Part shown: piece after piece, positions 8,051-35,532 of the stretch
Layout: each line of letters starts with the position of its first letter
Numbering within the stretch: position 1 is the stretch's first letter
Assembly: GCA_964228555.1 (NCBI GenBank)
Contig: CAXQZU010000009.1
Coordinates: 14,778 to 78,777, forward strand
Length of the DNA stretch: 64,000 bases
Direction of reading: 5' to 3'
From: Planctomycetota bacterium
GTDB taxonomy: Bacteria; Planctomycetota; PLA2; JAEUHO01
The notes under the pieces: model-generated
Databases searched by the model: none
Told to the model about the DNA's origin: nothing
Seen by the model: only the letters and a program-made list of their open reading frames with translations
Translations under genes and position numbers: made by a program

Positions 8051-8338
8051 GTGCGGGGGTCCCGCCGGAGGCCCGCCGTGAAGCAGCTGACTGCCCTCGA
8101 GGATGCCGCCCTGCGCTTCATCCTGGGCACGTTGCACGAGTCCAACGGCTGGCTGGACCTCACGCGCATCTGCAGCCGCACCGGGCGCCACCTGGGCGAC
8201 GTGCGTGATGCCGTGGCGCGCCTCGTGCGCCGGCGTCTCGTGCAGGTGGACGAGTCCGCGCCCAGCACCGAGCGCTGGCTGCGCTTCGTCACGCCGGGAG
8301 CCGAGGTGACCGCCGCGGGGTCGCCGCCGCGCGCCTAG
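8051..8338 (+). CDS. small hypothetical protein, possible winged-helix regulator
   Basis: 95-aa ORF convergent with the acylase gene; LTRICSRTGRHLGDVRDAVARLVRRRLVQV resembles a wHTH recognition helix. Weak call. Confidence 0.35.
   Translation: MRGSRRRPAVKQLTALEDAALRFILGTLHESNGWLDLTRICSRTGRHLGDVRDAVARLVRRRLVQVDESAPSTERWLRFVTPGAEVTAAGSPPRA

Positions 8339-10712: not shown

Positions 10713-10716
<4 letters not shown>
8335..10716 (-). CDS. penicillin acylase family Ntn-hydrolase (penicillin amidase / AHL-acylase-like)
   Basis: C-terminal 793 aa of ORF 8335..11919. HGVPHVAAPSDADAFAALGVCHGLDRFFQMD, the spacer-to-beta-subunit GSNAFLVGSGRT (Ser nucleophile), and WGSTN. GTG start at 10716 forms a GTGA overlap with the stop of the upstream phosphomannomutase gene. 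No obvious signal peptide from this start. Confidence 0.8.
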
Positions 10717-12119
<1,403 letters not shown>

Positions 12120-12138
12120 GGCAGGGTGCGCGGGCCCG

Positions 12139-13137
12139 CTAGCGGGGGGCCGCGAGGCCGGCCTGCACCAGGTCGTGCAGTCGCACCATGCCCACGGCAC
12201 GCCCCTCCTCGTCCACCACCGGCAGCAGGTTGATGGGCGTGGGCTGGTGGCGTTCCATGACGTGCAGGGCCTCGTAGGCCAGCAGGTCGGGGCGCACCGA
12301 GGTCGGCGTCCGCGTCATCACCTCGCGGGCGGGCCTCGCGAGCAGGTCGGGCACCGAGCCCCCGGCACGCTGGATGGTGCGCCGCACGTCGCCGTCGGTG
12401 ATGAGCCCCACCAGGCGCCCTGCCGCATCCACCACGGAGACGCCGCCCAGCGCACCGCGCGTGACGGCCTCCAGCGCCTGCTGGAAGGTGGCGTCCACCG
12501 ACACGGTGGGATGCGTAGCCGGCCCACGCAGCAGGTCGATGACGCGCAGCGTGAGCTTGGTGCCGATGGCGCCGGAGGGATGGAACAGCGCGTACTGGGT
12601 CGCCCCGAAGCCGCGGCGCTCCATCAGGGCCACGGTGAGGGCATCGCCCAGCGCGATGGTGAGCGTGGTGCTGGTCGTGGGCACGAGGCCCATCGGGTCG
12701 GCCTCCGCCACCTTCCCCCACGCGAGCACGAGGTCGGCCGCCCGGCCCAGCGGGCTGTCGGCGTCTCCCGTGAGCGCGATCACGCGCGCTCCGAGGTTGC
12801 GCATCACGGGCACGAGGTCCACCACCTCGCGCGTGCGGCCGGAGTTGCTGATCGCCAGCACCACGTCCCGCCGGGTGACGATGCCCACGTCGCCGTGGAA
12901 GCCCTCGGCCGGGTGCAGGAACTGGCTGGGCGTGCCCGTGCTGACCAGCGTGCTGGAGAGCTTGGCCCCCACGTGGCCGCTCTTCCCCATGCCGCACACG
13001 ATCACGCGACCCTCGCAGGCGAGGAGCAGGTCCACCGCCTCGTCGAAGGCGCGGCCCAGGCTGCGCGCCAGGGCCTCGAGGGCCTCGACCTCGCGCCGGA
13101 TGACAGCGCGGCCGGTCTCGTGGGCAGGTGCAGGCAT
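12139..13137 (-). CDS. kpsF: arabinose-5-phosphate isomerase (KpsF/GutQ family; SIS plus tandem CBS domains)
   Basis: Internal ATG at 13137 of ORF 12139..13800. SIS motifs VIVCGMGKSGHVGAKL and VVLAISNSGRTRE, with C-terminal CBS pair. Confidence 0.85.
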   Translation of the reverse strand: MPAPAHETGRAVIRREVEALEALARSLGRAFDEAVDLLLACEGRVIVCGMGKSGHVGAKLSSTLVSTGTPSQFLHPAEGFHGDVGIVTRRDVVLAISNSGRTREVVDLVPVMRNLGARVIALTGDADSPLGRAADLVLAWGKVAEADPMGLVPTTSTTLTIALGDALTVALMERRGFGATQYALFHPSGAIGTKLTLRVIDLLRGPATHPTVSVDATFQQALEAVTRGALGGVSVVDAAGRLVGLITDGDVRRTIQRAGGSVPDLLARPAREVMTRTPTSVRPDLLAYEALHVMERHQPTPINLLPVVDEEGRAVGMVRLHDLVQAGLAAPR

Positions 13138-13199
13138 GCGCGCCAGAGTACCCGCAGGGCCTCGCACCCCGATGCTCCCGGGTCGCGTGACCGCGGCCG

Positions 13200-16019
13200 G
13201 TGCCCATGCGGGAAGCGGCCATGGCGCCTGCCCGACCGCTTCCCAGCGCCCTGTGCGGCGTGGTGGGCGGCCTGCTCTGCAGCGGCGCGCACGCCGGCAC
13301 GCCCCTGTTGGTGCTGGCCGGGTTGCTGGCCGCTGCGGCGTCGACGCGGGCCGCGGCCGCCGCCCTGGGCTTCGCGCTGGGCGTGCTGCTGGGCGCGGGC
13401 CTCGCGCGCGGGCAGGCCGCCTGGCCCTTGCCGCAGGAGGCGCTCGTCGAGGCCACGGGCACGGTGCGCTCCTGCGATCCTCCCGCACCGTCGGGCCAGC
13501 GCTTCGTGCTGGCGCTGGACGCGCCGCGCGGAGGCGGCCCGCAGCTGCAGGTGCGCTGGGACGCGAGGGACGCGCCCGCGCTGGCTCCCGGGGATCGCGT
13601 ACGCGCCGTGCTCGAGGTGCAGGATGCAGGGCGGCCGGGCTCGCCCGGCCTGCGGGACCCGCGACCCTGGCTGGCGCGACAGGGCCTGTGGGCCCGCGCC
13701 ACCGCGCAGGGCGAGGAGGCCGTGACGCTGCTGGGACGGGGCCACGGCGCCGCGCGCCTGCTCGCGCGGGCGCGTGAGCAGGCGTCGGCCGCGCTCTCAC
13801 GCCACCTGCGACCCGCCGACGCCGGCCTCGCGCGTGCCCTGCTGCTTGGCGACCGGGGTGCGCTCGCGCGCCGCGATGCCGAGGCCTTCCGGAGCGCGGG
13901 CCAGGGCCACCTCGTGGCGGTCTCCGGCCAGCACGTGGTGCTGGTGCTGGGCACGGTGCTGGTGCTGGCGCGCATGCTGGGCGTGCGCGGGCCCTGGCGC
14001 CTCGCGGCGGGACTGATCACGCTCGCGGCCTACGTGCCGCTGGCCGGCGCGGCCCCCTCCGCCGTGCGCTCGGGCCTCACCGCCAGCACCTGGCTGCTGG
14101 CGCGGCTGGGTGGACGCGAGGCCGTCGCGCTGGACGTCATCTGCGGCACGGCGCTCGCGATGCTGCTGGCCGACCCCGCGGCACTGCAGGACGCCGGCTT
14201 CACCTTGTCCTTCGCCGCGGTGCTGGGCATCGAATGCCTGGCGCCCCGGCTCGCGGCGGGCCTCGGTGCCGTGCCCATCCGCATCGCTGGCGTGCTGGAG
14301 CCATCGCGACCGCGCGTGCGCATGGCGCTGTGCGTGGCGCTGGCCGCGTGGCTGGCAGGAGCGCCGCTGGCACAGCACACCTTCGGCACGCTGGCCCCCG
14401 CGAGCGTGCCCGTGTCCCTGCTGGCGGTGCCGCTCGCCGCGGCCTTGCTGGGCCTCGCGGCGGCGGCGCTGGCGTTGGGCCCGCTGCCCCTGCTGGCGGA
14501 AGGCGTGCGCGGCCTCTTCGCTGCGACCGCGGACCTGCTGCGGGCCCTGCTCGCCCTGCCCGAGACCGCAGGCCTAGGCCTGCTGCAGGGCCCGCAGCCG
14601 GGGCCTGCCTGGCTCGTGGCCGCGCTGGGCCTGCTGGCCGTGGCCTGCGCAGGCCCGCCGCGCCTGCTGCGCTGGTCGCTGCTGGGGCTGGGGGCGCTGC
14701 TGCTGGGTGCGCTCGTCCCACACCCTCCTGCGGTGCCCCGCGCGCCCGAGGCCGTGGCACTCGAAGCGCCACGCGCACAGGCCGTGCTGCTGCGCCTGCC
14801 GGATGCGCGCAACGTCCTGCTGCTCGCAGGCGGTCCTGCGCTGGGTCCGGCGCTGCGCTGGGAGGTGCCGGAGGCGCTGCGCGCCCTCTGCGTGACGCGC
14901 CTGGACCTGCTCTGGCAGGCGAGCAGCGAGGGTCGCGCGCACCGTGATGCGCAGGCCCTCGCCGCGCGCCTGCAGGCCGGACCTGCACGGGTGGACGCGC
15001 CGGCCGATCCGGCCCACGTGCTGCTCTCGGGTGCGTGGGGCCGGCTCGAGGCTGCCACGCAGGCGGGCCGGCGCGTCGTGGACCTCGTGCAGAGAGGCCA
15101 GCGCACGCGCCTGCTGCCGCCGCCCGTGGAGGGCGAGGGTGCGTGGCGCCTGCGCACGGAGCCCGGCACTGCGGCCGGCTGGCAGCCATGGGGCACCGCG
15201 GCCCCCGCGCACGGGCTGGGCGAGTATCCTGCGCACGCGATGCTCGCGCCCGCGCCTCCCGATGCTGCCGCGCTGGGCCTGCTTGCCCTCGCGCTGGGCG
15301 GGTTCGCGCTCGCGTGCGTGCGACCGCTGCGCTGGCTGTCCCCGGGCGGCGCCCTGGCGGCCTTCGTGCTGGGCATGGCGGCGACGGCGACGCTGGGCTG
15401 GGCGGCGCTGGCAGCCCTGCTGGCCCCCTTCATCGTCGCCACGCTGCTGGGAAGGCTGCCGGGCCGTCCGCGGGAGGCTGGCCGCAGCGCACGGCAGGTG
15501 GCCTGCAACGGCTTGCCCGCACTGCTGGGTGCCGGCCTCGCGCTGGCTGGCCTGCGCGAGGCCGGCGCAGCCGTGCTGGTGGCCAGCCTCGCCTGCCTGG
15601 GGGCCGACACCTGCGCCACCGAGGTCGGCACGCGCTACGGAGGGCAACCCCGCTCGCTGTGGGGTGGCCGGCCGCTCGATCCGGGCACGAGCGGGGGCGT
15701 CACGCGGGCCGGCCTCGCAGCCTCGCTGCTGGGCGCGATGCTGTCCCCGCTGGCCTTCGGCTGCGTCGCGGGACTCGACCTCACGACGCAGGCATGGCTG
15801 GCCACGGCGGGTGTCGCAGGCGCGCTGCTCGACAGCCTGCTGGGCGCCACGCTGCAGTTCCGCGGGCGGGCCCCCGATGGGCGCGTGCTGGAGCAACGCA
15901 CGCTCGACGGCGTGGCGCTGGCCCGCGTGCGCGGCTGGCGCGTGCTCGACAACGACGCGGTCAACCTGGCCAGCGGCCTTGCCGCAGGCCTGCTGGGCTG
16001 GGCGCTCGTCGCGGCCTAG
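13200..16019 (+). CDS. ComEC/Rec2-like competence membrane protein fused to C-terminal DUF92 (COG1836/TMEM19-like) domain; no metallo-beta-lactamase HxHxDH motif
   Basis: 939-aa ORF (GTG 13200; ATG alternatives 13206 and 13221). ComEC core motif AFRSAGQGHLVAVSGQHVVLVLG; many TM helices; middle region lacks an HxHxDH motif; C-terminal 250 aa match DUF92 (GADTCATEVGTRYGG, DSLLGATLQ). Confidence 0.75.
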   Translation: MPMREAAMAPARPLPSALCGVVGGLLCSGAHAGTPLLVLAGLLAAAASTRAAAAALGFALGVLLGAGLARGQAAWPLPQEALVEATGTVRSCDPPAPSGQRFVLALDAPRGGGPQLQVRWDARDAPALAPGDRVRAVLEVQDAGRPGSPGLRDPRPWLARQGLWARATAQGEEAVTLLGRGHGAARLLARAREQASAALSRHLRPADAGLARALLLGDRGALARRDAEAFRSAGQGHLVAVSGQHVVLVLGTVLVLARMLGVRGPWRLAAGLITLAAYVPLAGAAPSAVRSGLTASTWLLARLGGREAVALDVICGTALAMLLADPAALQDAGFTLSFAAVLGIECLAPRLAAGLGAVPIRIAGVLEPSRPRVRMALCVALAAWLAGAPLAQHTFGTLAPASVPVSLLAVPLAAALLGLAAAALALGPLPLLAEGVRGLFAATADLLRALLALPETAGLGLLQGPQPGPAWLVAALGLLAVACAGPPRLLRWSLLGLGALLLGALVPHPPAVPRAPEAVALEAPRAQAVLLRLPDARNVLLLAGGPALGPALRWEVPEALRALCVTRLDLLWQASSEGRAHRDAQALAARLQAGPARVDAPADPAHVLLSGAWGRLEAATQAGRRVVDLVQRGQRTRLLPPPVEGEGAWRLRTEPGTAAGWQPWGTAAPAHGLGEYPAHAMLAPAPPDAAALGLLALALGGFALACVRPLRWLSPGGALAAFVLGMAATATLGWAALAALLAPFIVATLLGRLPGRPREAGRSARQVACNGLPALLGAGLALAGLREAGAAVLVASLACLGADTCATEVGTRYGGQPRSLWGGRPLDPGTSGGVTRAGLAASLLGAMLSPLAFGCVAGLDLTTQAWLATAGVAGALLDSLLGATLQFRGRAPDGRVLEQRTLDGVALARVRGWRVLDNDAVNLASGLAAGLLGWALVAA

Positions 16020-16074
16020 GGCGCGCCGCGCGCGGCCCCCCCGCCGGCCGGGAGCCGGGGAGGGTTGGTGCCCG

Positions 16075-16150
16075 CGCTAGGACTCGAACCTAGGACCCGG
16101 TGATTAAGAGTCACCTGCTCTACCAACTGAGCTACGCGGGCAGCAGGACG
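16075..16150 (-). tRNA. tRNA-Lys (anticodon CTT)
   Basis: Reverse complement reads GCCCGCGTAGCTCAGTTGGTAGAGCAGGTGACTCTTAATCACCGGGTCCTAGGTTCGAGTCCTAGCGCGGGCACCA: canonical cloverleaf, encoded CCA. Confidence 0.9.
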
Positions 16151-16204
16151 CAGAGGCTAGCCAGCCCGTCCCCACGCGCAAGCGCGGGCACGGGACCACC
16201 GGGC

Positions 16205-19057
16205 CTACGGCCGTCCCTGCTCGGGGCAGCCGGCATCGATCCAGGCGGCGATGCGGGCGATCTCGGCCTCGGTGGGCTTGCGCTTGCCGCGGGGCGGCAT
16301 GCGCTTCGTCGGCACCTCGGCCACGCGGCCGTCGGCGTAGGTGACCCACAGCGGCTCGCCCTTGAGGGCGCGCACGAGGTTGCTGCGGGCGCTGTCGCCA
16401 CGCACCAGCAGGGCCACCATGCCGTCCTCCCCTTCCACGCGCGGGAAGCGGAAGGCGAGGAACTCGTCGTAGGAAAGCTCCCAGAACTGCTGGTGGGGTG
16501 CGCTGCCCGCGTTGCTCATGTACGAGCCCAGCAGGGCCTTCACCTCCGCGAAGCCCGCCACGGAGGGCGCGGGCGGGGCTGGCTGCGCGGGCGCGGGGGG
16601 CGGGAAGCCTGCCGGCGCGGCGGGCTCGACCGGCGCCGGGGCGGGGAACCCAGCGGCGGGTGCAGCCGGGGCCGGCTCCGGGGCCGGGAAGCCTGCCGGT
16701 GCCGAGGGCTCGCTGGGCGCAGGGAAGCCGCCTGCGGGCGCAGGCTCGGCCGGTGCAGGGAACCCGCCGGGCGCGGCAGGCTCGGCAGGCGCCGGGAACC
16801 CGCCGGGCGCGGCGGGCTCAGCCGGCGCGGGGAACCCGCCAGGCGCAGCCGGCTCGCCCGGCCCGGGACCCGGCTGCGCCGCAGGGCTGGCCGCACCCGC
16901 GCCCGGCGGCAGCGGCGCCGAGCCCGGCTGCTCGGGACAGCCTGCATCGATCCAGGTGGCAATCTGCCCCAGTTGCTCGGGCGTGGGCTTGGTCTTGCCC
17001 CGCGGCGGCATGCGCTTGATGGAGACATCCTCGCGCCGGCCGTCGGCGTAGCGCACCGTCACGGGCTCGCCACGCAACGCCTTGAGCAGGTTGCTGGCCT
17101 TGCTGTCGCCCGGGACCACGAGCTGGATCTCGCCGTCCTCGCCCTCGGCCCTCGGGAAGCGGAAGGCGAGGAACTCGGCGTGCGAGAGCTCCCAGAACTT
17201 CTGGTGGGGCGAGCTGCCCGCCGTGCTCATCCACGAGCCGAGGATGGCCTGGATGCCCGCGTATCCCAGCGGGCTGCTGACGGCAGGCAGGCTGCCGCCC
17301 GGCCCGGCGTCGCGCGGCGGGGCCGTGCCCGGCCCCGGCTCGCGCACGGCGGCCCCGCCCTCGCCCGCCGGCACGGGCACGGGCTCGCGCGGCAGCGTGG
17401 AGGGCGTGCCCAGCACCTCGGGGCAGCCTGCGTCGATCCAGGCGGCAATCCGTTCCACCGTCTCGGCGGGGACGGGCGGCCGGCCCTTGGGCATGCGTGG
17501 CACGTCCTTGCGCGCCCAGGTGCCATCCGCACGCTGCACCAGGCAGCCACGGCCATCCACGAGCACGCGCACGAGGTTGCTCTCGCGGCTGTTCCACGGC
17601 CAGACGAGGCGGTAGCGCGTGCCGGCCTCGTCGGCATCCTCGAAGGTGGCCTTGACGAGCTCGGCGTAGCCCATCTCCTTCCAGAACGCACCGTGAGGGC
17701 TGCTGCCACCCGGGCTCTTGAGGTCCTTGAGCAGCTGCATCGCCTCGGCGAAGCCCAGGTCGTTGGCGCGCCCGGGCGAGGTCACGCCCGGCAGCAGGGA
17801 AGGCACCATGTCCGGCGGGCACTCCGGCGCTGCAGCCGCGTCCACGGAGCAGCCGACATTCATCGGGATGTCGGCGAAGTCGAACACCAGCGTCCAGTTG
17901 CCCTGGAAGAACTGGTAGGTGCGGATGAAGCGGCCCTTGGCCGTCTCCTCCTTGCCGAGCGCGTTCTTGGTGGCCAGGAACAGGCGCCCCATCGCGATCA
18001 CGTAGGCCCCGTCCAGCGGCGAGCGATCCTCGAACTGGGCCGGGTCGTAGGCGTAGCGCGCATCGATCAGCTGCAGGCGGGTCACCGAGCCACGGCCCAG
18101 CGCCTCGAAGTACGACCCCCACGCCTCGGCCACCTTGGTGGCGCCGCGCGCGAACACGCCGTCGGTGCGGAACAGCACCGGGGCCGAGCCCACGGGGAAG
18201 CAGCACTGGCCCAGCACGTCGGCGTCCCGCTCCCGCAGGGCCGTGAGCAGCGCCGACTCCAGCTGGCGGATGCCACGCTCCACGCGGCGCGTGATCCCGT
18301 CAGGTCCCACCTGCTCGCGGAAGGGCCCGGGCGGCGGGCTGCGGTGCACGAGGTCGATGGTGCTGGCGTCGTGTCGCCACGAGGTGCGCACGTGGTTGAC
18401 CACGGCCACCAGCTCCTCGTTGGTGAGGCGCGTGCCCCACGGCGGCATGATGCTGCCCGGCGCGCTGGTGACGATGAACGAGAGCAACGCGTACGGGTTC
18501 TCGGCGACCGCCTTGCCGCTGTCCCGCAGCATCGGCACCCGCGGCGGGGCGCCGTTGCCGTCCTCGCCGTGGCAGCGCGCACAGGTGTCGCCGTACACGC
18601 GCTCGCCCATGCGCACGAGGTCGCGTTCGCGGACGGAAGCGTCCTCGCCGTCCTGGTCCACCGGCGTCAGCAGGTAGGCCAGCGACCAGGCGCCCACCGC
18701 CAGCAGCAGCACCCACGCCCAGGTGGGGATGGGCTCCGGCGTCTCGGCGCGCTTGGGCTCGAAGTCGACCTCGGTGTTGCCGGCGTAGGCGTTGATGATG
18801 ACGTCGACCTGGCCGGCGATGGTCTGGTTCTCCTCGAGGCCGGAGACCGAGATGGCCACGCCGTTGCGCACCACGAAGGGCAGCTCCTTGATCGTGGGCG
18901 GCGCCAGCCCGTTGCTGGCCTCGATGCGCAGCACGTGCGGGCCGTCCGGCAGGTGCAGCGTGGTGAACTGGAAGCGCAGCGGCGGGTGCGCCACCTTGAA
19001 CGGCTCGGTGGCGCCGTCGAGGAAGAGCCGGATGGGTTCCTTGGCCTCTTGCTGCAT
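16205..19057 (-). CDS. CcoP-like membrane-anchored monoheme cytochrome c with three tandem heme-less PSCyt1-like repeats and a Pro/Ala-rich linker
   Basis: 950-aa ORF with ATG at 19057. Roughly 110-aa N-terminal domain, TM helix TWAWVLLLAVGAWSLAYLL, class I cytochrome c motif CARCHGEDGNG...IMPPWG, then three ~100-aa repeats (SSPHGAFWKE...RMPKG...IAAWIDAGCPE, SSPHQKFWEL...KRMPPRG...IATWIDAGCPEQ, SAPHQQFWEL...KRMPPRG...IAAWIDAGCPEQ). These resemble the planctomycete cytochrome c (PSCyt1) domain, but CxxCH is replaced by SPHxxFW. Last gene of the cco cluster. Confidence 0.75.
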   Translation of the reverse strand: MQQEAKEPIRLFLDGATEPFKVAHPPLRFQFTTLHLPDGPHVLRIEASNGLAPPTIKELPFVVRNGVAISVSGLEENQTIAGQVDVIINAYAGNTEVDFEPKRAETPEPIPTWAWVLLLAVGAWSLAYLLTPVDQDGEDASVRERDLVRMGERVYGDTCARCHGEDGNGAPPRVPMLRDSGKAVAENPYALLSFIVTSAPGSIMPPWGTRLTNEELVAVVNHVRTSWRHDASTIDLVHRSPPPGPFREQVGPDGITRRVERGIRQLESALLTALRERDADVLGQCCFPVGSAPVLFRTDGVFARGATKVAEAWGSYFEALGRGSVTRLQLIDARYAYDPAQFEDRSPLDGAYVIAMGRLFLATKNALGKEETAKGRFIRTYQFFQGNWTLVFDFADIPMNVGCSVDAAAAPECPPDMVPSLLPGVTSPGRANDLGFAEAMQLLKDLKSPGGSSPHGAFWKEMGYAELVKATFEDADEAGTRYRLVWPWNSRESNLVRVLVDGRGCLVQRADGTWARKDVPRMPKGRPPVPAETVERIAAWIDAGCPEVLGTPSTLPREPVPVPAGEGGAAVREPGPGTAPPRDAGPGGSLPAVSSPLGYAGIQAILGSWMSTAGSSPHQKFWELSHAEFLAFRFPRAEGEDGEIQLVVPGDSKASNLLKALRGEPVTVRYADGRREDVSIKRMPPRGKTKPTPEQLGQIATWIDAGCPEQPGSAPLPPGAGAASPAAQPGPGPGEPAAPGGFPAPAEPAAPGGFPAPAEPAAPGGFPAPAEPAPAGGFPAPSEPSAPAGFPAPEPAPAAPAAGFPAPAPVEPAAPAGFPPPAPAQPAPPAPSVAGFAEVKALLGSYMSNAGSAPHQQFWELSYDEFLAFRFPRVEGEDGMVALLVRGDSARSNLVRALKGEPLWVTYADGRVAEVPTKRMPPRGKRKPTEAEIARIAAWIDAGCPEQGRP
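16590..16870. repeat. imperfect tandem ~36-bp DNA repeats encoding the (E)PAAPGGFPAPA linker inside the CcoP-like gene
   Basis: Three near-identical units (ggcgcggg-aacccgccgggcgcggcaggctcggc) at about 16751-16858, preceded by more degenerate copies; encodes PAAPGGFPAPAEP x5. Confidence 0.6.
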
Positions 19058-19063
19058 GGCGGG

Positions 19064-19303
19064 CTAGCGGCTCCCACGGGCCGGGGGCACGGCCGGGGGG
19101 TCGTCCTCGAGGATCTGGCGCTTGATGTGGTCGGGTTCCTGCTCGCCGGGGGCGAAGGCGTAGCGTACGCACATCCAGATGGAGGCGAGCGCCGCCAGCG
19201 CGGCCGCCACGGCCACCGCCCACTCCCAGGGCCCCATGTCCTGGAAGTGGACATGGCTGCCGCCGGCCAGCAGCACCCCAGACAGGAGGCCGTCCTGCCC
19301 CAT
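19064..19303 (-). CDS. small single-TM protein, CcoQ-like candidate
   Basis: C-terminal 79 aa of ORF 19064..19732. TM WAVAVAAALAALASIWMCV followed by a charged tail. ATG at 19303 overlaps the ccoO stop (TGATG); alternative ATG at 19237 (MGPWEW...). Confidence 0.5.
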   Translation of the reverse strand: MGQDGLLSGVLLAGGSHVHFQDMGPWEWAVAVAAALAALASIWMCVRYAFAPGEQEPDHIKRQILEDDPPAVPPARGSR

Positions 19304-20136
19304 CACGGCCCCCTCACCGGGCGCTTGAGCGACAGCAGGTACTCGGCCAGCGCCTTGGCGTCCGGCGTGGCCACGAGTCGGGCCCCCTCGGGCAGGCCCA
19401 GCGCCTCGATGCCATCCTCGACCACCTCGCCCTGGTCGGGCGGCGGCTGGCAGAGCTGGCACTCGCGGATCAGGAACCAGGCTGCGCCCACGCCCAGGCA
19501 GAGCGAGAGTCCCAGCGCCGGCGTGAAGCCGAACATCAGCCAGCCCAGCACCGCGAAGGCAAGCGCCACGCCGCCCACCAGCAGCCATGCCTTGCCCGTC
19601 GGGAAGGGCCCGTCGTGCGCCGCGAGGCCCGGGCCGTCGGCCTCGGTGGTGACGCGGAACAGGTAGCGGTAGGGAGGCATCACGCTGCCCGGCGAGACGC
19701 TGCGCGGGTCGTAGAGGTGCCAGTAGTGCCACAGCACGCTCGGCAGCCGGTCGCCCACGCCGGTGAGGTCCGGGCCCGTGCGCTGCGTGCCGATCAGGGG
19801 CGGCCTCGACTGTGCGTACTCCTCGGCCCGCGTGGGCTCATCGAGGCCGAAGCGGGCGTCCGGCGCACGCACGGGCACCACGAGGCGATCGCCGCGCTGC
19901 TCGCGCAGCCGCTCGTCGCCGCGGATCTGCTGCGTGTGGCACACGACGCAGCCGTACGCCTTGAACACCTCCTCGCCGCGGCGCACCAGGTCCGTCGGCG
20001 TGCGCCGCGCATCCACGGGGTAGGCCTTGTCCATGTCGGCCGCGGGTGCCACGGCCACCAGCCACACCAGCACCACGTAGATGCAGAGGGGCAGCAGCAC
20101 GAGCGCGCGGTGGTTGCTGTGGATGTCGAAGGCCAT
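19303..20136 (-). CDS. ccoO: cbb3-type cytochrome c oxidase subunit II (CcoO/FixO) with ~70-aa C-terminal extension containing an extra TM helix and CQLC
   Basis: MAFDIHSNHRALV, heme site YGCVVCHTQQIR, LWHYWHLYDP, GSVMPPY. The extension LLVGGVALAFAVLGWLMFGF...IRECQLCQ is not in canonical CcoO. Confidence 0.85.
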   Translation of the reverse strand: MAFDIHSNHRALVLLPLCIYVVLVWLVAVAPAADMDKAYPVDARRTPTDLVRRGEEVFKAYGCVVCHTQQIRGDERLREQRGDRLVVPVRAPDARFGLDEPTRAEEYAQSRPPLIGTQRTGPDLTGVGDRLPSVLWHYWHLYDPRSVSPGSVMPPYRYLFRVTTEADGPGLAAHDGPFPTGKAWLLVGGVALAFAVLGWLMFGFTPALGLSLCLGVGAAWFLIRECQLCQPPPDQGEVVEDGIEALGLPEGARLVATPDAKALAEYLLSLKRPVRGP

Positions 20137-20139
20137 GGC

Positions 20140-21603
20140 CTAGGAGCCCTCGCGCGCCGGCTCGGTGCCGGGGCTGCCGAAGATGTCGAGCAGCGCGCCG
20201 GGACGCATCTGGTAGATCGCGATGGCCGCCGCCACGTGCGCCGCGGCCATCAGGCAGCCGCCGACCACGCGCCACACCATGTAGGGCCGCATCACGCGCA
20301 CGGAGTCCATGAAGGACTGCCCCTCGACCCACGCTGCGCCCTGCTCCGCGCCGCCCAGGCACAGCGAGGCCACCATGATGGCTCCCCCGCCGAAGGCCAG
20401 CCAGTAGTGCAGGCCCACGAGCCCCACGGGCGGCTCGCGCCCGGTGATGCGCGGCACCAGCCCGTACATCGAGCCCCACAGCAGGAAGGACACGAAGAAG
20501 TACATGGCCGCGTGCGCGTGGCCCACCGTGTAGTGCGTGAGGTGCCAGCCGTCCTGCACGGCCCGCAGGCTCTGCAGCGAGCCCTGCGCCGAGACCAGCA
20601 CGTAGCCCAGCACGCCGGTGAGCACGAAGGGCAGCGAGTAGGACTGGCGGATGGCCACGCGCTCGCCCCACATCGTCAGCAGGAAGTTGCCCGAGGAGGC
20701 GAAGACCGGGACGATCATGGCCACGCTGAAGATCAGCGCGACGTTCTCCAGCCAGTCCGGGATGGCGGTGAACATGTAGTGGTGCGTGCCGATGAGCGTG
20801 TAGAAGACGAGGTGGGTGAAGAAGCCCAGCACGCCCAGCGCATACGAGTAGATGGGCTTGTTGAGCAGCTTGGGCAGGGTGTAGTAGGTCAGGCCCACGG
20901 CCAGCGGGGTGAACCACATGCCCACCGCGTTGTGCATGTAGTAGCCCTGCACGATGGTGTCGGCGAGGCCGCGCTGGAACATCGGCAGGTAGCCCATGAC
21001 CACCACCACCGCGATCCACGCGCAGGCCGCCAGCACGAACCAGCAGGAGATGTAGACGCCCTTCACCTGGCGCCGCGCCACGATGCGGTAGAAGGTCCCG
21101 AACAGCACCAGCACCGCCGCCGCGATGAGGCCGGCCGCCCAGACGGGGTACTCGCGGTACTCCCGGCTGGCGTTGAGCTGGCCCGCCAGCAGCGCGGCCG
21201 TGCCGCCCACCACGCCCGCGTTCCACAGCCACAGGGCGAGGTTGCCGGCCTTGAGCTCGGCCTCGTCCATGGTCACGCGCGCGCACTTGGGCACCACGTA
21301 CAGGGCCAGCGCGATGGACACCATCGAGGTCCAGCCGAACAGCATCGAGAGCGTGTGCACCGGGCGCAGGCGGCCGTAGGTGAGCAGGGCCGAGCCGCCG
21401 AGGAACTCGGGATCGACGTGGCGATAGCCCTCGATGAGGCCGGCCGCCGTGCCCAGCAGCAGCCAGAACACCGCGCTGAACAGCCAGCGATGCACCAGCC
21501 GGGCGAAGCGCGGGTCCGTGCCCGCGGCCGCCACGAACACCGGGATGCCGACGGGGATCTTCACGCGCGCGGGCTCCCGGCGGGCCACGGTGCATGGCCG
21601 CAC
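20140..21603 (-). CDS. ccoN: cbb3-type cytochrome c oxidase subunit I (CcoN)
   Basis: Heme-copper oxidase motifs GTHHYMF and WHLTHYTVGHAH, with 12 predicted TM helices. GTG start at 21603, alternative GTG at 21564; separated from ccoO by 3 nt. Confidence 0.9.
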   Translation of the reverse strand: MRPCTVARREPARVKIPVGIPVFVAAAGTDPRFARLVHRWLFSAVFWLLLGTAAGLIEGYRHVDPEFLGGSALLTYGRLRPVHTLSMLFGWTSMVSIALALYVVPKCARVTMDEAELKAGNLALWLWNAGVVGGTAALLAGQLNASREYREYPVWAAGLIAAAVLVLFGTFYRIVARRQVKGVYISCWFVLAACAWIAVVVVMGYLPMFQRGLADTIVQGYYMHNAVGMWFTPLAVGLTYYTLPKLLNKPIYSYALGVLGFFTHLVFYTLIGTHHYMFTAIPDWLENVALIFSVAMIVPVFASSGNFLLTMWGERVAIRQSYSLPFVLTGVLGYVLVSAQGSLQSLRAVQDGWHLTHYTVGHAHAAMYFFVSFLLWGSMYGLVPRITGREPPVGLVGLHYWLAFGGGAIMVASLCLGGAEQGAAWVEGQSFMDSVRVMRPYMVWRVVGGCLMAAAHVAAAIAIYQMRPGALLDIFGSPGTEPAREGS

Positions 21604-21707
21604 GCCTCGCGGGCACGGTACCGCAGGGCCGGCCCTCGGGCAACTGCGGCGTGGCGCCGCGCGCGCCGCCTGCGGCGTACGATGCGTGCCCCTCCCCGGA
21701 GCCCGCC

Positions 21708-22025
21708 ATGACGCGTCTCGCCACCCTGCTCTGCCTCGTTCCCAGCGCCCTGCTGGCCGTGCTCCTGCTGGGGCCCGGCACCGCGCCGGCGGCCCCGTCG
21801 CGGCCGGAGGTCGCCTACGAGTACAAGCACCTGATCCTGCCCGTGGAGCGCCGCCTCGAGGCGTACGAGAAGGCGGACGTGCTGCTGCTGGAGGCCCTGC
21901 GCCGCAGCGGCGAGGAGGGCTGGGAGCTCGTCTCGGCCTACGAGCCGCCCAACGGCGTGATGGTGGGCCAGCGCGCCAGCGTCGAGTTCTGGCTCAAGCG
22001 CGCCTACGTGCCCGGCACGCGCTAG
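21708..22025 (+). CDS. DUF4177-like small secreted protein
   Basis: ATG at 21708 inside ORF 21594..22025. Signal peptide MTRLATLLCLVPSALLAVLLLG, then EYKHLILP...EEGWELVSAYEP typical of DUF4177. Divergent from ccoN. Confidence 0.55.
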   Translation: MTRLATLLCLVPSALLAVLLLGPGTAPAAPSRPEVAYEYKHLILPVERRLEAYEKADVLLLEALRRSGEEGWELVSAYEPPNGVMVGQRASVEFWLKRAYVPGTR

Positions 22026-30635: not shown

Positions 30636-30781
30636 GGCTCCATCCTAGGCCACGGGCAGACGCCTGGAGGCATCACTTGCACTACGCAAGCATTGGGGCA
30701 AGGATGGCTTGGAGGGCGCAGGGGTGAGGGGTAGCCTGCGCAGCCCGGGCGCGTCGCGCCCCGTCGCGTGGAGCGCACCCC

Positions 30782-31900
30782 ATGGCCGAGGCCGCCGAGC
30801 TGCTGCAGGTGATCGACGTGGACGGCAAGACGCGCGGCAAGGCGCCGGCGCTCAAGCCCGACGACCTCAAGGCCATGTTCCGCGCGATGCTGGCCACGCG
30901 GCTCTTCGACCAGCGCGGCATGAACCTGCAGCGCCAGGGTCGCATCGGCTTCTTCGTGCCCTCCATGGGCCAGGAGGCCAGCCAGATCGGTGCCGGCTAC
31001 GCGATGGGCGAGCAGGACTGGCTGTTCCCCTCCTACCGCACGCACTCGCTGGCCATCCTCAAGGGCGTGGCGTGGAAGCGGCTCTACGACCAGCTGTGGG
31101 GCAACGCCACGGACGAGGTGAAGGGCCGCCAGATGCCCAACCACTTCTCGTTCCGCGACATCCGCTGGGTGTCGATCTCCTCGCCCATCGGCACGCAGAT
31201 CAGCCAGGCGGCGGGTGCCGCGCGGGGCATGCAGGTGCGCGGCGAGAAGGGCTGCGTGTGGGCGTGGTTCGGCGATGGCGGTACCTCCAGCAACGACTTC
31301 CATGCGGGCCTCAACTTCGCGGGCGTGTGGAAGTCGCCGGTGGTGTTCATGTGCGAGAACAACCACTGGGCCATCTCGGTGCCCACCGAGAAGCAGACGG
31401 CCAGCCAGACCTTCGCCGACAAGGCCGTGGCCTACGGCATGCGCGGCGTGCGGGTGGACGGCAACGACGTGCTCGCGGTGTACGAGGCGGCCCGCGAGGC
31501 GCGCGAGCGCGCCGTGCGCGGCGAGGGCCCCACGCTCATCGAGACCGTCACCTTCCGCATGGGCCCCCACTCGAGCAGCGACGACCCCAAGCGCTACCAG
31601 GCCCAGAGCCTGTTCGAGGCCTGGCAGAAGAAGGACCCCATCGAGCGCTTCCGGGCCTGGCTCAAGGTCAAGAAGCTGTGGTCGCAGGAGTGGGAGGACC
31701 AGCTCTCCAAGGGCATCCAGGACGAGCTCGCCAAGGCGGTCGAGGCGGCCGAGGCCACGCCGGCGCCCACCCTCGACACGCTGTTCGACGACGTCTACGC
31801 CACGCTGCCCGCCCAGCTCGCCGAGCAGAAGGCGGGCCTCATGGAGCAGATCCGCCGCAGCGGCGAGATCGAGAACGCCGGCGGCGCCTTCCCGCTCTAG
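30782..31900 (+). CDS. 2-oxoacid (branched-chain/pyruvate) dehydrogenase E1 component alpha subunit
   Basis: TPP motif GDGGTSSNDFHAGLNFAG, CENNHWAIS, phosphorylation-loop-like YRMGPHSSSDD. Confidence 0.9.
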   Translation: MAEAAELLQVIDVDGKTRGKAPALKPDDLKAMFRAMLATRLFDQRGMNLQRQGRIGFFVPSMGQEASQIGAGYAMGEQDWLFPSYRTHSLAILKGVAWKRLYDQLWGNATDEVKGRQMPNHFSFRDIRWVSISSPIGTQISQAAGAARGMQVRGEKGCVWAWFGDGGTSSNDFHAGLNFAGVWKSPVVFMCENNHWAISVPTEKQTASQTFADKAVAYGMRGVRVDGNDVLAVYEAAREARERAVRGEGPTLIETVTFRMGPHSSSDDPKRYQAQSLFEAWQKKDPIERFRAWLKVKKLWSQEWEDQLSKGIQDELAKAVEAAEATPAPTLDTLFDDVYATLPAQLAEQKAGLMEQIRRSGEIENAGGAFPL

Positions 31901-31975
31901 ACCCCACGACCACCGTCCCCTCCCCCTCTCCACGGCGCGGCCGGCAGCCGCCACCCGCCACGAAAGGACGACCCC

Positions 31976-32953
31976 ATGCCCGAGATGACCATGCTGCAGG
32001 CGATCAACGACGCCCTGCACGTCGCGATGGCGAAGGACGACGGCGTCGTCATGCTGGGCGAGGACATCGGCAAGAAGGGTGGCGTGTTCGGCGCCACGCA
32101 AGGGCTGCACGACAAGTACGGCGAGATGCGCGTGATGGACACGCCCCTCTCGGAGTGCGGCATCATCGGCAGTGCGGTGGGCATGGCCCTCTACGGCCTC
32201 AAGCCGGTGCCCGAGATCCAGTTCCTCGACTTCATCTATCCCGCCTTCGACCAGATCGTCTCCGAGGCGGCCAAGATGCGCTACCGCTCGGGCGGCCAGT
32301 GGACCTGCCCGATGGTGATCCGCAGCCCCTCGGGCGGCGGCATCCGCGGCGGCCACTACCACTCGCAGTCCAGCGAGGCCTACTTCGCGCACACGCCCGG
32401 GCTGCGCGTGGTGATGCCGAGCACGGCGCGCGACGCCAAGGGCATGCTGCTGTCGGCGATCTTCTGCGGCGACCCGGTGGTGTTCCTCGAGCCCAAGCAC
32501 CTCTACCGCCTGGCCAAGGGCGACGTGCCCGCAGGCTGGTACGTGGAAGACCTCGACAAGGCGCGCGTCGCGCACGAGGGCACGGACGTGACCGTGGTGT
32601 CCTGGGGCGCCATGATGCACACCTGCGAGGAAGTGCTCAAGGAGGCCCACGAGAAGGGCATCTCGGTGGAGCTGGTGGACCTGCGCACCCTGCTGCCGTG
32701 GGACGCCGAGACCGTGCTGGCCAGCGTGCGCAAGACGGGGCGCCTCGTGACCGTGCAGGAGGCCCCGCGCACCTGCGGCTTCGGCAGCGAGGTGGCTGCC
32801 ACGGTCGCCGAGAAGGCCATCGACTCGCTGCGTGCGCCCATCGCGCGCGTGGCCGGCTTCGACACGCCGTTCCCCTACACGCTGGAGCACGTCTACAAGC
32901 CCGACCGCAAGCGCGTGCTGGGCGCCATCGAGTACGTCTGCCGCTGGGAGTGA
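31976..32953 (+). CDS. 2-oxoacid dehydrogenase E1 component beta subunit
   Basis: Transketolase-like pyrimidine-binding and C-terminal domains (MGEDIGKKGGVFG, TPLSECGIIG). Confidence 0.9.
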   Translation: MPEMTMLQAINDALHVAMAKDDGVVMLGEDIGKKGGVFGATQGLHDKYGEMRVMDTPLSECGIIGSAVGMALYGLKPVPEIQFLDFIYPAFDQIVSEAAKMRYRSGGQWTCPMVIRSPSGGGIRGGHYHSQSSEAYFAHTPGLRVVMPSTARDAKGMLLSAIFCGDPVVFLEPKHLYRLAKGDVPAGWYVEDLDKARVAHEGTDVTVVSWGAMMHTCEEVLKEAHEKGISVELVDLRTLLPWDAETVLASVRKTGRLVTVQEAPRTCGFGSEVAATVAEKAIDSLRAPIARVAGFDTPFPYTLEHVYKPDRKRVLGAIEYVCRWE

Positions 32954-33039
32954 GGATCGCTCCCCCGGCCCCATCGCCCCGCGCGGGGCACACCTGCTGC
33001 ACGTAGCCCGGGGACGGGAGCGTCCCCAAGGAGACCGCC

Positions 33040-34362
33040 ATGGCCTTCGAGTTCAAGCTGCCCGACATCGGCGAGGGCCTCACCGAGGGTGAGGTCGTCA
33101 AGTGGCTCGTGAAGGAGGGCGATGCCGTCCAGAGCGAGCAGCCCATGGTCGAGGTGATGACGGACAAGGCGACGGTCGAGATCACCTCGCCGCGCACCGG
33201 CCGCATCGCCAAGATCCTGGCGCAGGACGGCCAGAAGATCCCCGTGGGCTCGGTGATGGTGGTGATCGAGGAGGGTGCGGGCGGCAGCGCGGCGCCTGCA
33301 GCCGCTGCGGCGCCTGCGGCCGCCGCGGCCAAGGCCCAGCCCAGCCCGGCGGCGCGCCCGCCGGTGCCGCAGGCCGCCCCGGCGGTGGCCGCGCCCGCGG
33401 CCAGCGCGCCGCGCCGCGAGCGCACGCTGGCCGCCCCGGCCACGCGCAAGCGCGCGCGCGAGCTGGGGGTGGACCTCGACAGCATCCCCGCCTCGGGCCC
33501 CCACGGCCGGCTCACGCGCGCCGACCTCGACGCCTTCGTGGCCGGCGGCGCGCGCACGCCGGCGAGCGCGCCGGCCGCGGTGCCCGCGCGCAGCGTGGCC
33601 CCGGCCGTGCCCAGCGCCCCCCCGGCGCGCGTGGCGCCCGTGGCCCCGCCGGTGCTGGCCGAGGACACGCGCGTGCCCCTGCGGGGCCTGCGCGGGAAGA
33701 TCGCCGAGCAGATGCTGCGCAGCAAGCAGCACGCCCCGCACTTCACCTACGTGGACGAGTGCGACATGACCGAGGTGGTGCGCCTGCGCGAGGCCGCCAA
33801 GCCGGCGGCCGAGGCGCGCGGGGTGAAGCTCACCTTCCTGCCCTTCATCATGAAGGCGCTGGTGGTGGCCCTGCGCAAGCACCCCACGATCAACGCCCTC
33901 GTGGACGACACCAAGGGCGAGTACGTGCTCAAGCGCGACATCAACGTCGGCCTGGCCACGGACACCGACGACGGCCTGACCGTGCCGGTGGTGAAGGGCG
34001 TGGACCGCCGCTCCATCCTGGAGATCGCGGCCGAGATCCAGCGGCTGACCGAGGCCGCGCGGGCCCGCAAGGTGGCGCTGGAAGACCTCAAGGGCGGCAC
34101 GATCACCATCACCAGCGCCGGCAGCATCGGCGGCCTGCTGGCCACCCCCATCCTCAACTACCCCGAGGTGGGCATCCTGGGCGTCTACAAGGTGGCCGAC
34201 CGCCCGGTGGTGCGCGACGGCCAGGTGGTGGTGCGCAAGATGTGCAACCTCTCCATCACGCTGGATCACCGCATCGTGGACGGCGCCACGGCCGCCCGCT
34301 TCATGAACGAGATGCTGCGCCTGCTGCAGGCGCCGGGCCTGTTGCTGGTCGAGGGCGCCTAG
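33040..34362 (+). CDS. dihydrolipoamide acyltransferase E2 component
   Basis: Lipoyl domain EVMTDKATVEI, peripheral subunit-binding domain, catalytic DHRIVDGA. Confidence 0.9.
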   Translation: MAFEFKLPDIGEGLTEGEVVKWLVKEGDAVQSEQPMVEVMTDKATVEITSPRTGRIAKILAQDGQKIPVGSVMVVIEEGAGGSAAPAAAAAPAAAAAKAQPSPAARPPVPQAAPAVAAPAASAPRRERTLAAPATRKRARELGVDLDSIPASGPHGRLTRADLDAFVAGGARTPASAPAAVPARSVAPAVPSAPPARVAPVAPPVLAEDTRVPLRGLRGKIAEQMLRSKQHAPHFTYVDECDMTEVVRLREAAKPAAEARGVKLTFLPFIMKALVVALRKHPTINALVDDTKGEYVLKRDINVGLATDTDDGLTVPVVKGVDRRSILEIAAEIQRLTEAARARKVALEDLKGGTITITSAGSIGGLLATPILNYPEVGILGVYKVADRPVVRDGQVVVRKMCNLSITLDHRIVDGATAARFMNEMLRLLQAPGLLLVEGA

Positions 34363-34365
34363 GCC

Positions 34366-35532
34366 GTGAAGGCCCCCTCCGGCAAGCGCGAGCCTGCGCC
34401 GCCCCGTGCCCGCACGGGCCGTGGCGCCGTGCCGCCCATGCCCGACCCCTTCGCGGTGGGCCCGCTGGGCCTGTTCCGCCTGGTGGACGAGCACGGCGCC
34501 GAGGTGGCCGAGGTGCCTGCCCTGCCCGAGGGCCTCGCCGTGCGCTTCCTCGAGGCCATGCTGTTCCAGCGCGCGCTGGACCAGCGCATGCTCAACCTGC
34601 AGCGGCAGGGGCGCATCGGCTTCTACGGCACGGCCAAGGGCCAGGAGGGCGCGGCGCTGGGCTCGGGCGCGGCCTTCGACGGGGAGGACTGGGTGTTCCC
34701 CGCCCTGCGCGAGGGTGCCGTGGCCCTCTGGCGCGGCATGGCGCTGGAGGCCTACATCGCCCAGTGCTTCGGCAACGCGGCCGACCCCACGCACGGCCGC
34801 CAGATGCCCTGCCACTACAGCGACAAGGGCGCGCGCTACATCTCGCTCTCCTCGCCCATCGCCACGCAGGTGACCCAGGCCGCGGGCGCGGCCCGCGCGG
34901 TGCAGGTGCGGGGCGACCGCACGGTGGTGGGCGGCTACCTGGGCGACGGCGCCACCAGCGAGCCTGACTTCCACGCGGCGCTCAACTTCGCCGGCGTGTG
35001 GAAGGCTCCGGTGGTCTTCGTGTGCCAGAACAACCAGTGGGCCATCAGCGTGCCGCTGTCCAAGCAGACGGCCTCGGCGACCCTGGCCGTCAAGGCCAAG
35101 GCCTACGGCATGCCGGGCCTGCGCGTGGACGGCAACGACGTGCTGGCCTGCTACGTGGCCACGAAGGCCGCCGTGGACCGCGCCCGGCGCGGCGAGGGTC
35201 CCAGCTTCGTGGAGTGCCTCACCTACCGGCTGGGCGGCCACTCCTCCAGCGACGATCCCTCGAAGTACCGGGACGAGTCCGAGGCGAAGGCGTGGGAGGC
35301 GCGCGACCCGCTGCTGCGCCATCGCGCCTGGCTGGCGGCGCGCGGCCTGTGGGACGCGGCGCGCGAGGAGGCCTTCCTTGCCTCGGCGGGCAAGCGCATC
35401 ACCGACGCCATCGCGCGCGTCGAGGCTGCCCCGCAGCCTGCGGCCGACACCCTGTTCCGCGACGTGTGGGCGAGCGTGCCCCCGCTGCTGCAGGACCAGC
35501 AACGCCGCCTGGAGGGCGGCCTGCCGGTCTAG
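34366..35532 (+). CDS. second 2-oxoacid dehydrogenase E1 alpha-subunit paralog
   Basis: GDGATSEPDFHAALNFAG, CQNNQWAIS, YRLGGHSSSDD. GTG at 34366 immediately after the E2 stop (alternative ATG 34438). No second beta subunit follows. Confidence 0.8.
   Translation: MKAPSGKREPAPPRARTGRGAVPPMPDPFAVGPLGLFRLVDEHGAEVAEVPALPEGLAVRFLEAMLFQRALDQRMLNLQRQGRIGFYGTAKGQEGAALGSGAAFDGEDWVFPALREGAVALWRGMALEAYIAQCFGNAADPTHGRQMPCHYSDKGARYISLSSPIATQVTQAAGAARAVQVRGDRTVVGGYLGDGATSEPDFHAALNFAGVWKAPVVFVCQNNQWAISVPLSKQTASATLAVKAKAYGMPGLRVDGNDVLACYVATKAAVDRARRGEGPSFVECLTYRLGGHSSSDDPSKYRDESEAKAWEARDPLLRHRAWLAARGLWDAAREEAFLASAGKRITDAIARVEAAPQPAADTLFRDVWASVPPLLQDQQRRLEGGLPV

Follow-up and report, generated by a model that had tools for sequence, protein, structure and literature searches.

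A planctomycete ComEC-family protein with a vestigial nuclease domain and an appended DUF92 membrane domain

We describe here a gene on a 64,000-nucleotide stretch of DNA from a Planctomycetota bacterium (positions 14,778 to 78,777 of contig CAXQZU010000009.1, assembly GCA_964228555.1; hereafter the window), in which a ComEC-family channel, the remnant of its nuclease domain and a DUF92 membrane domain are encoded as a single polypeptide. The gene occupies 13221..16019 on the plus strand and ends in a TAG stop codon at 16017-16019. The open reading frame (ORF) itself runs open from end to end from a GTG codon (13200..16019, plus strand, 939 aa), but the ATG at 13221 (beginning MAPARPLP) is the likelier true start, because a 98%-identical homolog, P0001, has its start called there. 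With a GC content of ~75%, the window contains many spurious ORFs; those that reach 80 aa or more and fall wholly or partly in the 8-kb region 11000-19000 number 37. Along the fusion ORF the codon-position pattern is uniform, with a GC content of ~0.9 at third positions (GC3) and ~0.6 at second positions (GC2); since third-position GC stays in one frame over the full length, no frameshift splits the ORF. The possibility, raised in an earlier note made from the sequence alone, that a frameshift divides the stretch into separate comEC and DUF92 genes was thus ruled out by the frame analysis and by the homologs. Compared with the DNA of a 98%-identical homolog on a contig from another sample (L039), the gene has 40.5 differences that are synonymous and 18.5 that are non-synonymous, which gives a ratio of non-synonymous to synonymous rates (dN/dS) of 0.20 for the whole gene and 0.11 for the Competence part, although the counts for the latter are small. 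On the basis of the GC pattern, the domain matches described below and dN/dS against homolog DNA, the fusion is a real single gene under selection. The two Pfam families by which the earlier note proposed to check its reading, PF03772 and PF01940, both match within this one protein, and the strings that it quoted lie at aa 229 (AFRSAGQGHLVAVSGQHV), aa 801 (GADTCATEVGTRYGG) and aa 878 (DSLLGATLQ).

The N-terminal part of the protein is laid out as a ComEC. Three transmembrane (TM) helices equivalent to ComEC TM1-3 (13236..13418, plus strand; residues 6-20, 24-40 and 45-66 in the AlphaFold2 [AF2] model) come first, as they precede the OB fold in most ComECs (PMC13539106). The putatively periplasmic OB fold (13440..13736, plus strand) was recognized by Pfam as DUF4131 (PF13567; aa 36-173, E 5e-12, 46.2 bits against a cut-off of 31.6), by a profile of canonical ComEC OB domains (72 bits) and by Foldseek against the nuclear magnetic resonance structure of a ComEC OB domain, 9iew (probability 0.99, 28% identity). 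The Competence, or channel, domain that follows (13737..14711, plus strand; non-spanning helices and TM4-11) matches PF03772 at aa 214-484 (E 9e-46, 156.8 bits against a cut-off of 23) and scores 214 bits against a profile of the canonical ComEC core. Among the NCBIfam models, TIGR00360 (ComEC_N-term) was passed at 97.7 bits (cut-off 36.5), and the full-length equivalog TIGR00361 (ComEC_Rec2) was matched at 88.4 bits, under its cut-off of 190.

The residues expected of a working channel are in place. The ComEC channel is lined by highly conserved residues, of which the constriction histidine and an arginine below it matter for transformation (PMC13539106). The window protein aligns to the cryo-electron microscopy (cryo-EM) structure of the Neomoorella carbonis ComEC (30bt_A, E 7e-27), with N. 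carbonis H254 pairing with H237, and its Competence domain carries the GQGHLVAVSGQHV and PSAVR motifs that contain H237 and R290; both residues are invariant in the 19 family members of our alignment A1. As ComEC has a defined role, that of a channel for ssDNA equipped with a nuclease on the periplasmic side (PMC13539106, PMC12455585), the view that neither fusion partner has a well-defined biochemical role cannot be maintained for this half of the protein.

What follows the channel is a metallo-beta-lactamase (MBL) domain of which only the N-terminal half is left (14748..15188, plus strand). The earlier note had described the protein as lacking this domain altogether. No motif of the H.H.DH, H.D.DH or similar type indeed occurs anywhere in the protein, Pfam returns no Lactamase_B match and the nuclease is non-functional; what did not hold up is the absence of the domain, as a half-MBL that is predicted to fold remains. 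When 18 fusion homologs were aligned, residues ~517-663 matched the intact MBL domains of the homologs P0020, P0023 and P0008 column by column. Where these homologs keep the motifs LDVGHGQA, LLDAG, SH[AG]D[AQ]DH and PHHG, the window protein has ALEAPRAQA, LLLAGG and WQASSEGRAH at the corresponding sites, and the C-terminal half of the domain is deleted; LDLLWQASSEGRAH stands in place of the LDLxxxSHxDxDH stretch. In terms of metal binding, the motif-1 aspartate has been replaced (LLLAGG), motif 2 has become QASSEGR and motifs 3-5 are absent. A divergent but intact motif was thereby ruled out by the motif search, together with the score of the protein against a profile for which 52 canonical ComECs outside the fusion family supplied the MBL domains (11.6 bits, independent E-value 9e-6, positions 16-64 of 252).

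Several further lines of evidence point to the same remnant. In a phmmer search of PDB sequences, the alignment with 30bt_A runs on into the first MBL strands; in the AF2 model the region forms a beta-rich folded unit with a predicted local distance difference test (pLDDT) of 70-94; and Foldseek matched it to the MBL hydrolase 1vjn_B with a probability of 0.99 over 125 columns. About 150 MBL residues are left, and in close relatives these align to the first ~130 positions of the profile, so that a complete sandwich is not formed. Because alignment, profile scores, phmmer, AF2 and Foldseek agree, the nuclease domain is vestigial and catalytically dead rather than absent, and the stub is predicted to lie in the periplasm. 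It is followed by a linker (15189..15263, plus strand; EYPAHA / YDAPA motif) predicted to be disordered, with pLDDT below 50 at residues 659-676 (932-aa numbering), in which Tyr676 is nevertheless invariant across alignment A1.

Scored against the same canonical MBL profile, the fusion family forms a graded series. Nine clusters with an intact motif reach 186-263 bits, P0262 and P0015 reach 76-81 bits, P0004-P0007 ~50 bits and P0003 25 bits; the window protein and its two nearest relatives stand at ~12 bits, and ~20 short forms of ~790 aa give no signal at all. Pfam Lactamase_B matches were obtained in P0020 and P0008 only.

The C-terminal domain (15264..16016, plus strand) comprises eight predicted TM helices and a beta-hairpin placed in the cytoplasm, as judged from Pfam, AF2, the alignment and loop charges. 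Its assignment in the earlier note to DUF92/COG1836 proved correct: PF01940 matches at aa 706-929 with an E-value of 1e-41 and 143.3 bits (cut-off 27.5), spanning profile positions 9-250 of 251. A 109-row DUF92 alignment that includes the window protein has 14 invariant columns (R762, V767, N770, D803, G810, G829, G832, G838, D878, G882, Q886, N918, V921 and N922), and the window protein carries the same residue at each. Two of these are an aspartate pair, D803 in GADT and D878 in DSLLG, which lies with R762, Q766, N770 and N918-D919-N922 on the predicted cytoplasmic face. Most of the stand-alone DUF92 proteins that we sampled (P0130-P0183) also have a CxxC...[CH]xC zinc (Zn) ribbon in the hairpin that links the DSxLG..Q motif to NDxVN. 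Among the fusion proteins the ribbon is found only in six basal, MBL-intact clusters (P0020, P0023, P0242, P0245, P0246 and P0248), and it is missing from all derived fusion forms; the hairpin region in question is at ~15864-15950 of the window.

For DUF92, too, there is more to be said than that its role is ill defined, as the earlier note had it. COG1836/PF01940 has been related to the CdsA family (HHpred 97.6%, with both di-metal aspartates conserved), and, with an archaeal gene context of uppS, COG1836 has been predicted to be an isoprenoid kinase of the CdsA/dolichol-kinase superfamily (PMC5898192); a plant member, At1g78620/VTE6, is a phytyl-phosphate kinase (PMC5694494, PMC3223725). The family would thus be one of CdsA/dolichol-kinase-superfamily enzymes with two catalytic aspartates, and from its residues the DUF92 domain of the window protein looks competent as an enzyme. 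Structure searches gave less: Foldseek against the PDB found no significant solved structure for DUF92, the best enzyme hit being a weak one to TmCdsA (4q2g; E 0.08, probability ~0.6, TM-score 0.29), and a profile search of PDB sequences with DUF92 found no match.

Modelled in full length by AF2, the protein has a mean pLDDT of 89.9 and a predicted TM-score (pTM) of 0.70. The order of elements is three TM helices, the OB barrel, amphipathic helices, eight core TM helices and the MBL stub, then the disordered linker and the eight DUF92 helices with their beta-hairpin; modelled alone, DUF92 reaches a pLDDT of 94.9 and a pTM of 0.92. The N. carbonis cryo-EM structure has an 11-TM topology with the OB fold and MBL in the periplasm (PMC13539106), and the predicted helix order of the ComEC half agrees with it. 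In DUF92, the four loops assigned to the cytoplasm contain or adjoin 16 arginines and lysines, versus one that adjoins the three opposite loops, which points to an 8-TM domain with both termini outside. The polar invariants R762, Q766, N770, D803-T804-E808, S831-G832, D878-S879-Q886 and N918-D919-N922 would then all be found at the cytoplasmic face. The fusion is topologically natural in this model, because the last ComEC helix exits to the periplasm and the first DUF92 helix enters from it.

The fusion has a narrow distribution. In a genome scan that used one genome per GTDB species, it was present in 21 loci, all from metagenome-assembled genomes (MAGs) of Planctomycetota or Planctomycetia, at species level and from different studies. 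The remaining 11 scan hits were stand-alone DUF92 genes, mostly from Spirochaetes and Gemmatimonadaceae MAGs, with one from an Acidobacteria MAG and one from an unclassified bacterium. An exhaustive HMMER search over 1.84 billion cluster representatives returned 45 proteins at E ≤ 1e-30, of which ~30 stand for fusion clusters at 50% identity, with fusion homologs persisting down to ~38% identity. The earlier note had proposed a survey in Myxococcota; since every genomic fusion hit is a planctomycete MAG and all related loci are from Planctomycetota, a myxococcal origin was ruled out. The proteins encoded around the gene are 62-93% identical to those of fusion-bearing Planctomycetota MAGs, and these identities, together with a DUF1570 protein of a planctomycete-typical family in the window, indicate that the host is a planctomycete rather than a myxobacterium. 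The latter is a 695-aa protein with a weak DUF1570 match, and it adjoins an 840-aa ORF (56866-59385, minus strand) with coding-like GC3 and no Pfam match at E ≤ 0.001. In the library that we searched no paper names ComEC together with DUF92, the pairing is missing from a systematic 2018 survey of the architectures of Competence-domain proteins (PMC6299819), public databases label the fusion proteins 'ComEC/Rec2 family competence protein', and an exact look-up of the window protein returned no database record. The combination is thus absent from the literature searched and is confined to one small, uncultured planctomycete clade. Another planctomycete genome has, in a different genomic context, a canonical ComEC that is not fused and carries a THTDLDH motif.

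The order of events can be read from the family itself, within limits. In neighbour-joining trees of both domains the fusion family is monophyletic with respect to the sampled canonical ComECs and stand-alone DUF92 proteins; as their rooting is unchecked and they carry no support values, this monophyly is only suggestive. Members with an intact MBL stand at the base of the DUF92 tree, and six of the nine MBL-intact clusters keep the Zn ribbon. In these basal members (P0020, P0023, P0008 and others) the MBL domain is complete and its SH[AG]D[AQS]DH motif is preserved, and for this reason the series suggests that DUF92 was joined once, in a planctomycete ancestor, to a full ComEC whose MBL looked active, and that the MBL decayed afterwards, probably along more than one branch. 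The idea in the earlier note that the fusion itself reflects a channel decoupled from nuclease activity is therefore at odds with the family: decay came later. In the shortest forms the OB fold decayed as well, with ≤26 bits against the canonical profile as compared to 53-160 bits in the long forms, while the channel core and DUF92 stay conserved under purifying selection. Every fusion member scores 155-230 bits against the canonical Competence core profile, and at matched distance domain identities are 80% for DUF92, 71% for Competence, 56-59% for OB and 54% for the MBL stub.

In two related assemblies the DUF92 part stands as a separate ORF. In L004 (9267-9291) one in-frame TGA is followed by 21 nt and an ATG, and ComEC and DUF92 are called separately; in L035 (~8238-8316) and L036 there is a 1-nt frameshift in a C-rich stretch coding for PPPAPPP, just past a conserved YDPP motif. 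These splits would be either real gene fissions or long-read indel or base errors. Because the assemblies are of long-read style and sequencing error is possible, we did not count them as two-gene versions in the manner of Rosetta-stone evidence.

The fusion gene is monocistronic. An 83-bp intergenic region parts it from a divergent gene (12139..13137, minus strand) for a KpsF/GutQ-family arabinose-5-phosphate isomerase of the 3-deoxy-D-manno-octulosonate (Kdo) pathway, with one SIS and two CBS domains in Pfam and a TIGR00393 score of 283 bits (cut-off 203.7). Downstream of kpsF is a gene for a phosphoglucomutase/phosphomannomutase (PGM/PMM)-family mutase (10713..12200, minus strand; Pfam PGM_PMM domains I-IV), whose best NCBIfam match is PgmG-like and under its cut-off, and beyond the two lies a penicillin amidase gene. 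The kpsF-pgm pair stands beside the fusion in all 16 related loci that have upstream flank (L001, L003-L007, L009, L010, L012 and L015-L021), and these cover all three MBL states. On the other side the 3' boundary is set by a tRNA-Lys(CTT) gene found by ARAGORN (16066..16141, minus strand), 47 nt past the stop codon; the same tRNA lies ~2-6 kb downstream of the matched region in eight related loci (L006, L010, L015, L016, L019-L021 and others). Scans for promoter and terminator consensus sequences found none, a result that is uninformative for this organism.

Cytochrome c and cbb3-oxidase genes follow the tRNA gene. At 16208-21993 (minus strand), FixO and CcoN-like cbb3 oxidase genes adjoin the gene for a protein of 950 aa in which the only domain is a cytochrome c domain of the cbb3 type, and this block is kept downstream of the fusion in only 2-4 related loci. 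Elsewhere in the window there is a 2-oxoacid dehydrogenase cluster (30728-37026, plus strand) with one E1-beta, one E2 and one E3 gene and two genes of the E1-alpha type (E1_dh; 30728-31897 and 34363-35529).

Stand-alone DUF92 genes of other phyla have heterogeneous neighbours that offer no consistent functional clue, and no Competence domain was found within 8 kb of them. Two single-locus observations are recorded here for completeness. In a Spirochaetaceae MAG an MBL-fold (Lactamase_B_2) gene directly follows DUF92 (L022, 8721-9527, plus strand), and in a Gemmatimonadaceae MAG DUF92 is followed by a gene for a FAD_binding_3 or lycopene-cyclase-like oxidoreductase (L028, 8829-10094, plus strand), possibly resembling geranylgeranyl reductase.

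In the canonical proteins of N. carbonis (30bt), B. subtilis and L. pneumophila, as in the window protein, three TM helices are followed by the OB fold and then by the Competence core, the channel histidine and the PSxxR arginine are conserved, and an MBL-derived segment comes after TM11 on the periplasmic side; the window protein differs from them in that this segment is a dead half-domain and that a whole 8-TM DUF92 is appended. Gains and losses of MBL and OB domains are frequent across bacteria, the MBL being optional in the ComEC family (PMC6299819). In S. pneumoniae ComEC has an inactive MBL, for which EndA substitutes, and in H. pylori it has none, and both organisms are transformable (PMC12455585). 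Their channels work without a nuclease of their own, and the window protein likewise has no nuclease catalytic residues; unlike it, they have no DUF92. No counterpart of EndA turned up in the present analysis, in which no search was aimed at one.

On the DUF92 side, the family to which Arabidopsis VTE6 and human TMEM19 belong shares with the window protein the 8-helix fold with a cytoplasmic hairpin and the invariant residues. In contrast to the stand-alone members of ~250 aa, here DUF92 is the C-terminal domain of a ComEC and has lost the Zn ribbon, and its host, unlike that of the plant enzyme, is a non-photosynthetic planctomycete. The homology to CdsA, dolichol kinase (Sec59) and phytol kinase (PF01148, COG0170) is reported to be distant, and the window DUF92 falls outside PF01148.

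A further parallel is offered by E. coli YcaI, a ComEC-family inner-membrane protein. In E. coli K-12 (L033, NC_000913 964320-971598) ycaI lies directly upstream of msbA-lpxK-ycaQ-ycaR-kdsB, much as kpsF lies beside the fusion. The annotation of YcaI is that of an inner-membrane protein of the MBL superfamily; it lacks DUF92, and its neighbours are different genes and on the same strand. In the laboratory E. coli is not known to show natural competence. With kpsF beside the fusion and ycaI beside msbA, lpxK and kdsB, ComEC-family genes stand next to Kdo/lipid A genes in two distant phyla, which may be a coincidence.

Taken together, these data lead us to favour, with somewhat better than even confidence, a reading in which the protein is this lineage's ComEC ortholog, whose channel and OB fold still function, which is without a nuclease and to which a DUF92 domain, active as a cytoplasm-facing enzyme of the lipid-phosphate kinase type, is permanently tethered. 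The product would be one inner-membrane polypeptide of ~19 helices with two intact modules and one dead one. The first, made of three TM helices, the periplasmic OB fold and the 8-TM Competence core with the channel-lining H237 and R290, would still move a nucleic-acid strand, as do the ComECs of H. pylori and S. pneumoniae that are without an MBL or have a dead one. The second, the N-terminal half of the MBL nuclease, would be a structural remnant rather than an enzyme, and strand degradation would be done elsewhere or not at all. The third, the 8-TM DUF92, would present its aspartate pair on the cytoplasmic side, at which the binding of a nucleotide co-substrate is expected, and would act as a nucleotide-dependent lipid-phosphate kinase, probably on a prenyl phosphate in the inner leaflet. 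The nucleotide would probably be CTP, which is reportedly the cofactor of VTE6. The two halves would be co-expressed and co-localised because they are tethered; they would need no obligatory chemical link, the tether being probably historical and topologically permissive.

A number of observations weigh against this proposal. No second, canonical ComEC and no comEA, dprA, comF, pilus or other competence genes were found within the 64-kb window, and the only conserved neighbours, kpsF and pgm, are envelope sugar precursor genes rather than competence genes. The match of R290 to the transformation-essential R285 of L. pneumophila is one that we infer from motif position, not from a direct alignment. 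The DUF92 part scores 67-71 bits against the hypothetical-equivalog model TIGR00297, under its cut-off of 205.85, and represents a divergent subfamily, and its hairpin has neither cysteine nor histidine, the Zn ribbon having been lost. All carriers of the fusion are uncultured. Furthermore, the loss of both periplasmic DNA-handling modules after the fusion could mean that the channel no longer handles DNA, and the persistence of the fusion to ~38% identity hints at more than accidental tethering.

According to the main rival explanation, the Competence core has given up DNA import and has become a partner of DUF92 in handling an envelope lipid that bears a phosphate: for example, polyprenyl phosphate or polyprenol would be returned across the membrane and re-phosphorylated at the cytoplasmic site of DUF92. 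Such a coupled and repurposed protein would account for the decay of first the MBL and then the OB fold within a family whose TM core and DUF92 are conserved, for DUF92 being the most conserved part, and for the retention of the fusion over deep divergence. It would also fit the presence of envelope-glycan precursor enzymes, KpsF (Kdo) and the PGM/PMM mutase, in 16 of 16 loci, the position of E. coli ycaI next to msbA-lpxK-kdsB and the link of archaeal COG1836 to uppS. However, the channel histidine and arginine and the other ComEC core motifs are unchanged, the profile scores are those of canonical ComECs and the OB fold of the window protein is still recognizable at 72 bits. Synteny within a single clade may be mere inheritance, and in no other phylum examined is DUF92 linked to ComEC. 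To our knowledge, no Competence domain transports lipids. Competence-only ComECs are moreover common (PMC6299819), and the MBL-less H. pylori is transformable (PMC12455585). We therefore regard coupling of this kind as rather unlikely, and the sharper claim that core and DUF92 form one machine, without DNA import, that returns and re-phosphorylates an envelope lipid such as polyprenyl phosphate is doubtful.

It could also be that only DUF92 matters and that the ComEC half is a decaying passenger, at most a membrane anchor or targeting scaffold. DUF92 is indeed the most conserved domain, the MBL and OB domains are visibly decaying, and in related assemblies (L004, L035/L036) the DUF92 part is found as a separate ORF. 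Yet the lowest dN/dS, 0.11, albeit from small counts, is that of the Competence part, which keeps all family motifs among members 36-44% identical and has profile scores (155-230 bits) like those of canonical ComECs. Sequencing error in long-read-style assemblies could, moreover, account for the splits, which come down to one TGA in the first case and to a 1-nt frameshift within a C-run in the second. A relic of this sort seems to us improbable.

We give still less credence to DUF92 as a cytoplasmic partner in DNA import, with a nucleotide or Asp-metal site at the channel exit that receives or processes the incoming strand, or that couples nucleotide chemistry to uptake, loosely like ComFA/ComFC of Firmicutes. 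The predicted topology does put the active face of DUF92 on the channel-exit side, the CdsA superfamily binds nucleotides, the ancestral DUF92 had a cytoplasmic Zn ribbon, and ComEC is known to require cytoplasmic partners (PMC12663950). Nonetheless, there is no precedent for a DUF92 or CdsA-family protein acting on nucleic acids, the Zn ribbon is gone from most fusion proteins, the window protein included, and stand-alone DUF92 genes lie away from competence genes.

Finally, a chance ORF in DNA of 75% GC, where spurious long ORFs abound, or a mis-assembly or frameshift joining two genes is refuted by three Pfam domains in the right order with strong E-values, by the consistent codon-position GC, by the recurrence of the same fusion in at least 21 independent MAGs and in the 98%-identical contig from another sample, and by the dN/dS of 0.20.

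ComEC is the universal gate for DNA entry in natural transformation, and it is encoded by most bacteria, many of which have never been seen to take up DNA. What appears to be new here is a ComEC whose nuclease is decaying and which has gained a domain of the CdsA enzyme superfamily; this does not by itself imply that the halves cooperate. A clade in which ComEC was permanently tied to a lipid-kinase-type enzyme and in which the nuclease and then the OB fold eroded offers a natural experiment on what ComEC can and cannot do without. The clade further provides a rare way into the function of DUF92, a family that is widespread but has very little bacterial biochemistry, and into possible roles of ComEC other than transformation. 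If the two halves are independent, as we favour, the protein would be a tidy case of domain decay after a topologically permissive fusion. If they are coupled, they would point to a new activity of the Competence domain; a coupled lipid machine, were it real, would give this near-universal domain a non-DNA function, and it could help explain both the persistence of ComEC in non-competent bacteria and the Kdo/lipid A neighbours of its genes in E. coli and planctomycetes.

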